A DNA stretch of 64,000 nucleotides from Eledone cirrhosa (taxonomy: Eukaryota). The position numbers and the translations under genes were made by a program. The stretch spans positions 4,712,001-4,776,000 of the forward strand of contig OZ024746.1 in NCBI GenBank assembly GCA_964016885.1. The letters are read 5' to 3'. This document shows, in pieces, positions 2,953 through 18,753 of the stretch (its first letter is position 1; each line of letters starts with the position of its first letter). The notes below the pieces were generated by a model. It was not told where the DNA came from. It did no database searches and saw only the letters and a program-made list of their open reading frames with translations.

Positions 2953-3024
2953 GATGTGTTGGTGTAAATGGTAGCACAGTGGTCTGGATAACCAAAGATG
3001 TGGGTTCGACTCCCATGTACATCA
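2953..3024 (+). pseudogene. tRNA-like cloverleaf (anticodon GGA, no long variable arm), probable pseudo-tRNA or SINE head
   Basis: Acceptor GATGTGT/GTACATC, D arm GTGT/GCAC, anticodon stem with G-A mismatch, T arm GTGGG-TTCGACT-CCCAT, T5 run at 3034. Confidence 0.5.
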
Positions 3025-16619: not shown

Positions 16620-16683
16620 ATACATACACATATATTTCTTCAATGTATTGTGTCGTTTGGTTTGTTATTTCTGTTTATATATA

Positions 16684-16719
<36 letters not shown>

Positions 16720-16809
16720 GTGTATGTATATAAACATATATATATATATATATATAATGTGTATGTATATAAACATATATATATATATATATAATGTGTA
16801 TGTATATAA

Positions 16810-16840
<31 letters not shown>

Positions 16841-16891
16841 GTGTGTGTATATAAACATATATATATAATGTGTGTGTGTATATAAACATAT

Positions 16892-17094
16892 ATATTTAGT
16901 TATGTAATAAACAACATAAGACAATTATTCCATTTACCAAAGGTTTCACGAAGACAGACGGGCCTGACACAGACGTCTGAAATCGCTCATCAGAATGAAA
17001 TTTGATTTCAGACGTCTGTGTCGAGCTCGTCTGTCTTCTTCAAACCTTTGATAAATGGAATAATTGTCTTATGTTGTTTATTACATAACTAAAT
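16892..17094. repeat. Inverted repeat (about 90-bp arms) in a (TA)n-flanked element
   Basis: 16892-16984 pairs with 17005-17094 with few mismatches. Confidence 0.9.
16928..17000 (-). ncRNA. Type I hammerhead ribozyme (complete fold, GUA triplet)
   Basis: UUUCAUU-CUGAUGA-GCGA..CAGACG/CGUCUG..UCGU-GAAA-CC(UUU)GG-UA/AAUGGAA; 7-bp stem I. Confidence 0.78.
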
Positions 17095-17149
17095 AGCTCT
17101 GTAGCCTACATAGAACACTCTCTTTTCCTTTACCTTTCCTTTGGAAACA

Positions 17150-17193
<44 letters not shown>

Positions 17194-17624
17194 AATATTT
17201 GTTATAACAAAATGTATCATCAAGGTACATTACTAATTTTGAAAAGGTATCAAAATATAAAATACCAAAACGAAACCTAAAGACTCTACAATGAATAATA
17301 ATTCTTTTCTTAATGGGAGAAAGAGAGAAAGAATAAATTTTGGAATTGATGTTTAAAATAGAATTTTCTATGTTTAATTTGATTTTCTTTTAATGAGAAA
17401 ACATTTAATATTTTTCATTAAAAACAAATACAAAAGACTTGATGGGATTACATGCAACAAGACAAAATATAAGATGGTTAATTAAACAATTAAATATTAA
17501 CATTTCAGATAATGAGAATGGCAACCACATTTTAATATAGACAAAAATGATTTTATGAAAGGGGTTGTCTTTTATTCAGGATTTTTTTTAAATTTTATTT
17601 AAGTTCTATTTTTTATTTGTTCAA

Positions 17625-18100
17625 GAATATATTTCAAGTATGGCCCAACTTTGAATATATTTCAAGTATGGTCCAACTTTGAATATATTTCAAGTATGGC
17701 CCACCTTTGAATATATTTCAAGTATGGCCCACCTTTGAATATATTTCAAGTATGGTCCAACTTTGAATATATTTCAAGTATAGCCCAACTTTGAATATAT
17801 TTCAAGTATGGTCCACCTTTGATTATATTTCAAGTATGGCCCAACTTTGAATATATTTCAAGTATGGTCCACCTTTGAATATATTTCAAGTATAGCCCAA
17901 CTTTGAATATATTTCAAGTATAGCCCAACTTTGAATATATTTCAAGTATGGTCCACCTTTGAATATATTTCAAGTATGGTCCAACTTTGAATATATTTCA
18001 AGTATAGCCCAACTTTGAATATATTTCAAGTATAGCCCAACTTTGAATATATTTCAAGTATGGTCCAACTTTGAATATATTTTAAGTATGGTCCACCTTT
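17625..18100. repeat. 28-bp minisatellite, about 17 copies
   Basis: Unit GAATATATTTCAAGTATGGYCCAMCTTT. Confidence 0.95.
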
Positions 18101-18610
18101 AAATATAAAGTACTTAAAGTCTCTAAAAAAAATATATATATATATATATAATAAAAAAAAAAGGGAGAGATAAAATACCCACCCCACCCCACACTTACTA
18201 AGAAGAAAAACATTACAAAACGAAATAATATAAAAAATATTGTCATGAGAAAATTGTAATGTAAATGGACATTAAAGAATGTTATTCCATTTCTCATGTT
18301 TCTTCAGAAAGAAAAAAAAGGGCCAAAAGACAAGTATAACATTTTTGATTTGTTTGTTAGTTGGTTTTCCCTCCCACACAGGATATTGGACCACCATCAT
18401 TAGTATTTTAGAAATAGACAATAGATTATATAGCTGGTTGTTTATATACCCATTCATTGTCAAAGGCAACATACTGGCAGTGTGGTTGATGGACTGGAAA
18501 TGACTCAATGGTGTTTTTTTTTCTTTTATTTAAAAAAAAGGGGGGAAGGACAAAAGAGATGGGTTTTAAGGGTAGAATTCAGAATTATTTCTATGTTGTA
18601 ATCCTTGCTT

Positions 18611-18753
18611 CTACTGTGGCTGACAGGAAAGGTAGAATGCAGCACGATCTTTGATTTGCTCCAAGTATACTTCCATCTGATTATTCAATTCATTAAGAGT
18701 TTTAGAAAGATCAGTTACTGCTGCATTGCGCTTGTTGAAACTTTTTATCAAAA
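18611..18753 (-). CDS. LAMB1: Laminin beta terminal coding exon 27
   Basis: [46 protein letters not shown]; C-terminal Cys typical of beta chains; TAG stop at 18613-18611. Confidence 0.9.

Follow-up and report, generated by a model that had tools for sequence, protein, structure and literature searches.

According to the accessible sections of Craig et al. 2021 (PMC8557442), insertions of Penelope-type elements (PLEs) are heavily 5′-truncated, often have a second, truncated copy in inverted orientation at the 5′ end, bear a tail of 30-40 bp at one end, and use (TA)n tracts as targets. For Poseidon PAc of the green anole, the portions of Frangieh et al. 2024 at hand (PMC11167929) report a tail that spans the segment from one RT start site to the other, cutting and extension of both strands of an AT-rich target, and a hammerhead ribozyme that depends on the protein and that insertion in vitro can do without. 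PLE hammerheads, in the excerpted account of Cervera and de la Pena 2014 (PMC4209133), are mostly solitary and truncated, with some opposite-strand pairs 100-700 bp apart, and those of metazoans with a short helix III cleave poorly as monomers. Hammerheads in the 3′-UTRs of Clec2 genes are described in excerpts of PMC2950038 as being conserved across mammals and as lowering reporter output.

Here, we analyzed a window of 64,000 nucleotides (nts) from Eledone cirrhosa (assembly GCA_964016885.1, contig OZ024746.1, positions 4,712,001 to 4,776,000), in which a hammerhead motif lies on the sense strand of a laminin beta gene. The element carrying it is very probably a dispersed hammerhead repeat that was inserted by a PLE RT into a (TA)n tract, with its antisense arm a likely by-product of insertion, and it likely sits within the laminin-beta 3′ UTR or immediately beyond it. 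Its 5′ truncation, head-to-head copy, one-ended tail, microsatellite target and hammerhead near the 3′ end agree with PLE insertions as far as PMC8557442 portrays them, whereas the family tail is longer (~60 nt versus 30-40), and no ORF or partial tandem was found in the family. With the PLE hammerheads presented in the excerpts of PMC4209133, the element shares a type I motif and, in the window copy, a short helix III; it differs from them in a longer, interrupted stem II, a non-palindromic 3-nt loop III, and a G-U, A-U or U-A pair replacing the conserved G10.1-C11.1. As in the PAc sections of PMC11167929, the tail is defined by two fixed points and the target is AT-rich; unlike autonomous PAc, whose ORF starts in the hammerhead, no open frame starts there in the present element. 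Like the Clec2 ribozymes, the motif follows a host stop codon in the sense direction; in contrast to them, as excerpted in PMC2950038, it is one copy of a repeat and is predicted to be locked in a hairpin. Neither this family nor the masking of a PLE hammerhead by an antisense arm was described in the literature consulted, and the element libraries of PMC8557442 and PMC4209133 may hold the family.

Anatomy of the insertion and its hammerhead motif

Through repeat comparison, the whole insertion (16893-17150) was resolved into two 5′-truncated copies, lying head to head, of a Penelope-type repeat's 3′ end (subfamily A), placed between TA-rich microsatellites: a TA/CA-rich low-complexity tract at the short end (16650-16892) and a (TA)n/(TC)n microsatellite, likely the target site, at the tail end (17151-17206). 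The short, tail-less arm (16897-17008, minus strand; reference positions 147-262, with the short end at 16897) carries the complete hammerhead in laminin sense, and the long, tailed arm (17004-17150, plus strand; reference positions 171-322) forms the antisense “mask” of a laminin-sense RNA. By comparison with the family, a tail of ~60 nt, the Penelope tail signature, was found on the long arm only (17092-17150, plus strand), and this continuation of the element to 17150 had been missed in an earlier note on the same DNA. Because the long arm is truncated before CUGAUGA and its G12 is changed (17041), it has no functional hammerhead of its own.

The earlier note had proposed that a minus-strand transcript makes the inverted arm first and that this arm can pair with most of the ribozyme, which was borne out by two inverted arms (17004-17102 and 16886-16984) of 99 nt that are 91% complementary and 19 nt apart. 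The upstream arm is complementary to all of the ribozyme from stem II onwards, and by inverted-repeat and fold analysis CUGAUGA is left, together with the 5′ strand of stem I, in the 19-nt loop between the arms (16985-17003, minus strand). Over an 85-nt core, each arm has three private changes, none common to both; in the laminin-sense arm all three fall in the distal loop, sparing core and stems, and the other arm has lost G12. At three changes, this sparing is a weak but not nil sign of selection.

Located from sequence and, for the stems, also from folding, the motif is a type I hammerhead in C-G-S order (16927-17001, minus strand), with its core extending over 16993-16935. Stem I (17001-16994/16934-16927) pairs 17000-16994 with 16934-16928 as 7 bp including one G-U, followed by an eighth pair, 17001/16927; next come the CUGAUGA block (16993-16987), stem II (16986-16948), the GAAA block (16947-16944), stem III (16943-16937), in which two C-G pairs close UUU on the minus strand, and the GUA site (16937-16935) with the cut between 16935 and 16934. 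Stem II begins with a 4-bp proximal helix (16986-16983/16951-16948), which a 3x3 internal loop separates from the distal helix. CUGANGA, GAAA and UH were thus all found in C-G-S order with three stems, and a complete hammerhead on the laminin sense strand 1.6 kb beyond the stop, a 7-bp stem I, an extended stem II and a GUA cleavage site are all located on the minus strand as the earlier note had described them.

The G-U at pair 10.1-11.1, where hammerheads usually have G10.1-C11.1, had escaped the earlier note, and together with the 2-bp stem III it leads us to predict a weak ribozyme in the window copy. An Rfam scan of the window element returned no hammerhead family at the gathering score or among the 17 matches at E≤10, and the microRNA-precursor matches below the gathering score merely reflect the long hairpin. 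A scrambled (SGC) reading was rejected on the C-G-S block order, that of an ordinary type I motif and unlike that of the scrambled hammerheads in the excerpts of PMC10085705.

Elsewhere in the window, short motifs of the form CUGANGA...GAAACGUC, similar to minimal PLE hammerheads, were observed in laminin introns at +52645 and −48343; a third at −35941 lies inside a coding exon and is likely due to chance. A tRNA-like match (2953-3024, plus strand; Rfam 50 bits) is possibly a tRNA-derived repeat.

A dispersed family with a common inverted, one-tailed layout

Genome-wide searching of the 3.0-Gb genome gave 1709 candidate places for the 217-nt palindrome, 40 of which were scored and were 86-100% identical on the better strand, and 1464 candidate places for a single arm (40 scored). 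A 25-nt core had 977 exact matches (475 + 502), as compared with 0 for the reversed control. The first 30 of these 977 matches by position served as a positional sample and represented 23 insertions by our grouping. Head-to-head arms of at least 25 nt were found in 18/23 insertions and single arms in the remaining 5/23; 17 of the 18 pairs were seen inside their locus, and one (L192/L193) was paired from coordinates 1.85 kb apart.

All 18 pairs bear the ~60-nt tail on one arm only: this arm runs to the tail end in 15, stops five bases short of it in 1, and in 2 the alignment stops mid-tail. The partner arm stops at the short end in 13 pairs and up to 55 nt before it in the other 5. Inner truncation points differ between the sampled insertions, and the flanks are mostly (TA)n. 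The window copy follows this layout, its plus arm being tailed to 17150 and lacking CUGAUGA, and its minus arm ending at 16897. At L099, L127, L239 and many other loci, the (TA)n tracts are nests of unrelated palindromic elements lying side by side.

Across 26 palindromic loci, the two arms of an insertion have 38 private variants in common, against 10.2 (maximum 20) when arms were exchanged among the 26 loci 2000 times. This indicates that both arms were copied from one template, or were homogenised later. Defining an intact hammerhead by its core, at least 7 pairs in stem I, 4 in stem II and 2 in stem III, we found one in 7/23 sampled insertions, and in 6 of the 7 it is overlapped by the upstream antisense arm. 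With an intact hammerhead behind an antisense arm in 6/23 insertions, the laminin copy is not special.

Subfamilies retain the fold with different sequences

Two further subfamilies have the same inverted, one-tailed layout as subfamily A. Subfamily B (815 candidates) has a stem I that is one base shorter on both strands and a C-G to U-A replacement in distal stem II; subfamily C (1071 candidates, of which the top 40 are 99-100% identical) has an unrelated yet fully paired stem II and a CUGAGGA core block. The fold is thus kept in B and C despite different stem II sequences, which indicates that the ribozyme is the element's own. In the 78 subfamily A arms that have both core blocks, pair 10.1-11.1 is G-U in 53, A-U in 21, G-C in 2 and C-U in 2, and in subfamily C it is U-A. 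Fewer than four contiguous proximal stem II pairs remain in 20/22 subfamily B arms, and in six copies tested the active fold was predicted to lie 3.0-7.5 kcal/mol above the ensemble. These traits, the unusual 10.1-11.1 pairs included, speak against strong activity.

Most subfamily B copies (L141-L170) lack proximal stem II pairing and are yet widely spread, which suggests that cleavage is dispensable for copying. Subfamily C (L225-L249, for example L232:1500-1810) appears very young, with copies 99% identical and a fully paired stem II that starts with U-A. In A and B, loop II letters could pair over 4-5 bp with a stretch ~10 nt upstream of stem I; the letters differ between the two subfamilies, and this pairing, seen by eye only, may be a chance one.

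Search for an encoding partner

PLEs with a C-terminal GIY-YIG domain abound in the genome (10597 GIY-YIG candidates), and long ORFs that combine RT, a CxxC linker and, C-terminally, GIY-YIG are present, which are Neptune-like going by the description in the accessible part of PMC8557442. The family 3′ end was absent from the 30 GIY-YIG loci and 20 long-ORF loci examined (50 of the 10597 candidates), the window copy has no RT/GIY-YIG ORF between pseudo-LTRs, and neither upstream walking nor four further stretches yielded an encoding partner. PLE protein matches within family loci are short pieces rather than a body joined to the element. Because no RT/GIY-YIG ORF was linked to the family, we infer its mobilisation by PLEs from the anatomy.

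The family body, 0.5 to 1.5 kb upstream, is microsatellite-rich and non-coding, holds no second hammerhead, and dissolves into microsatellites containing nested repeats. A 1.2-kb block common to L099, L122 and L123 is apparently another element, which may have a Helitron-like start. Behind the Neptune-like ORFs at L201, L215 and L219 lie 3′ regions that are long and rich in microsatellites; in style they resemble the family body, but they do not align with it. A window motif at +38946 has an identical counterpart in a GIY-YIG retroelement family (L204, L208 and L216), located ~380 nt past the ORF, and is probably left over from the 3′ end of this family.

RNA-like coverage behind the laminin stop codon

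The adjoining gene encodes a laminin beta chain, as Pfam detected EGF_laminin in 4/6 exon frames tested and LAMININ_IV_B in 1/6, and found nothing specific in the last coiled-coil exons. From the Pfam exon scans and a spliced contig of run X4, the last coding exon was placed at 18611-18753 (minus strand), with the stop codon at 18613-18611. Run X4, one sample of one study, was taken as RNA-like from its spliced joints only, and strand, RNA ends and editing are not readable from its assembled contigs. The last laminin introns are spliced on the minus strand in this run, and a 6031-nt contig joins the last exons and extends to ~18153, beyond the AATAAA at 18530. A 390-nt contig (depth 48) matches the unique flank at 17207-17553 without differences and extends 43 nt more, to ~17164, into the microsatellite adjoining the element. 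This indicates that some RNA reaches the element edge. No contig at ≥97% was listed over 16961-17035 or 17554-17610, gaps that are uninformative on RNA ends and on presence of the insertion, and no differing letters were listed, which is equally uninformative on editing.

The AATAAA hexamers that the earlier note had placed upstream of the element were located at 18530, 17617, 17599 and 17576, and seven more lie between 16347 and 15520. The antisense arm contributes its own AATAAA upstream of the hammerhead (17082-17077, minus strand), unnoticed before, and to judge from its position this hexamer could end the RNA before the ribozyme. Between the stop codon and the element (17600-18100) lies an array of ~18 copies of a 28-nt unit, which is probably inside the long 3′ end because RNA-like contigs occur on both sides. 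At another locus, a 302-nt X4 contig (depth 183) enters a family copy from the tail side, which indicates that the antisense arm is transcribed at other loci too.

Predicted folding of the two arms

The region was predicted to fold as a single hairpin (−140 kcal/mol), with the active ribozyme fold costing ~58 kcal/mol when the arm is present; in stepwise folding, the hairpin was predicted to take over before the ribozyme is complete. Coverage by the RNA-like run up to the element, in which strand is not readable, makes a ~100-bp hairpin in a long 3′ end plausible. The earlier suggestion that read-through laminin RNA forms a silencing duplex thus stands in its structural part, on the predicted hairpin preference and the RNA-like flank coverage; as a design for laminin it falls, since the layout is the family standard, with an arm in 18/23 insertions and an intact masked hammerhead in 6/23. 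That RNAs lacking the arm could cleave is doubtful, because the isolated motif is predicted to misfold, its active fold lying 3.6 kcal/mol above the ensemble, and because metazoan PLE hammerheads with short helix III are poor monomer cutters in the excerpts of PMC4209133. By analogy with other palindromic repeats (PMC5625713, in part), editing of the hairpin would be expected if it is transcribed.

Discussion

Variable 5′ truncation with an inverted copy (18/23), a one-ended tail (18/18) and a (TA)n target were all found in the family, as in PLE insertions. Under such a mechanism, both strands of a TA target would be nicked, copying of the element RNA would begin at two fixed points ~60 nt apart and stop early, and two truncated copies of one template would be joined head to head; alternatively, the first copy may fold back and copy itself. 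The hammerhead would be the ribozyme of the element's own 3′ repeat, and in laminin read-through RNA the arms may zip into a ~100-bp hairpin, which would block the ribozyme and be open to editing as in any palindromic repeat. We propose that the host tolerates a sense-strand cutter because the ribozyme is both weak and locked. The effect on the host is likely neutral, and an effect may still exist, since RNA reaches the element edge.

Other origins of the family agree less well with its layout. Its palindromic structure, length of ~250 bp and high copy number recall a DNA transposon of the MITE or foldback type, with a hammerhead-like motif present by chance in its terminal inverted repeats; the outer ends are unequal and the apex shifts between copies, observations that largely refute this origin, and with single arms in 5/23 insertions and a hammerhead fold that covaries between subfamilies we regard it as extremely unlikely. 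Copying of a short circular-RNA monomer into the genome, as for non-LTR retrozymes, is improbable rather than absurd: the family is non-coding and has a type I hammerhead with a short helix III, and the animal non-LTR retrozymes, non-coding carriers of type I hammerheads themselves, have been proposed to be PLE derivatives (PMC7229834; bioRxiv 10.64898/2026.07.22.740005, both in excerpt). Unlike these, which the same excerpts define by tandem monomers, the family has no head-to-tail monomer arrays in 125 loci holding the 3′ part and was therefore not classed as a retrozyme; 10 same-strand second pieces are short-ended arms, read as separate insertions, and the body 0.5 to 1.5 kb upstream has no second hammerhead.

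As to function, it is very unlikely that the arm is a co-opted switch that silences the ribozyme in the long laminin 3′ end and lets shorter or unwound RNAs cleave, affecting 3′-end formation or termination. Arguments for it are the complete core on the sense strand, an RNA-like contig extending as far as the element, the sparing of the core by private changes in the laminin-sense arm, and the precedent of the Clec2 3′-UTR hammerheads (PMC2950038, in part); against it, 6/23 sampled insertions have the same layout, and a laminin transcript must make the arm before the ribozyme. Further, the predicted 58 kcal/mol barrier, the predicted misfolding of the isolated motif, its G-U at 10.1-11.1 and its 2-bp stem III argue against such a switch, and editing would likely strike core adenosines too. 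The insertion may instead matter to laminin only as the donor of a poly(A) signal (17082-17077), the long isoform ending before the ribozyme, or as a hyper-edited hairpin. With an AATAAA inside the arm, an X4 contig abutting the arm, and palindromic repeats being favoured ADAR targets in the excerpts of PMC5625713, this is a minor but real prospect, against which stand contigs that cannot show ends, strand or editing, and a hexamer that is family-wide and accompanied by four AATAAA upstream and seven between 16347 and 15520. Also a long shot is that the long laminin-beta 3′ end acts as a conditional cutter, its hammerhead silenced by the duplex until editing or a helicase opens it, with head-to-head insertion serving as a general safety lock; if true, hundreds of ribozyme-bearing copies would be tolerated in host transcripts uncut.

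Under the preferred reading, insertion of a dispersed hammerhead repeat by a PLE RT, the “mask” probably arose in the ordinary course of insertion rather than as a switch made for laminin, and the single laminin locus is unremarkable; it would gain greater weight only if this copy changes mRNA ends or levels. As a family, the element provides a clean natural data set for PLE insertion, with tailed and tail-less arms paired in 18/18 cases, arms derived from a common template and, in one subfamily, very young copies (99% identical), and it accounts for a way in which host 3′ ends can acquire palindromic, ADAR-prone repeats.
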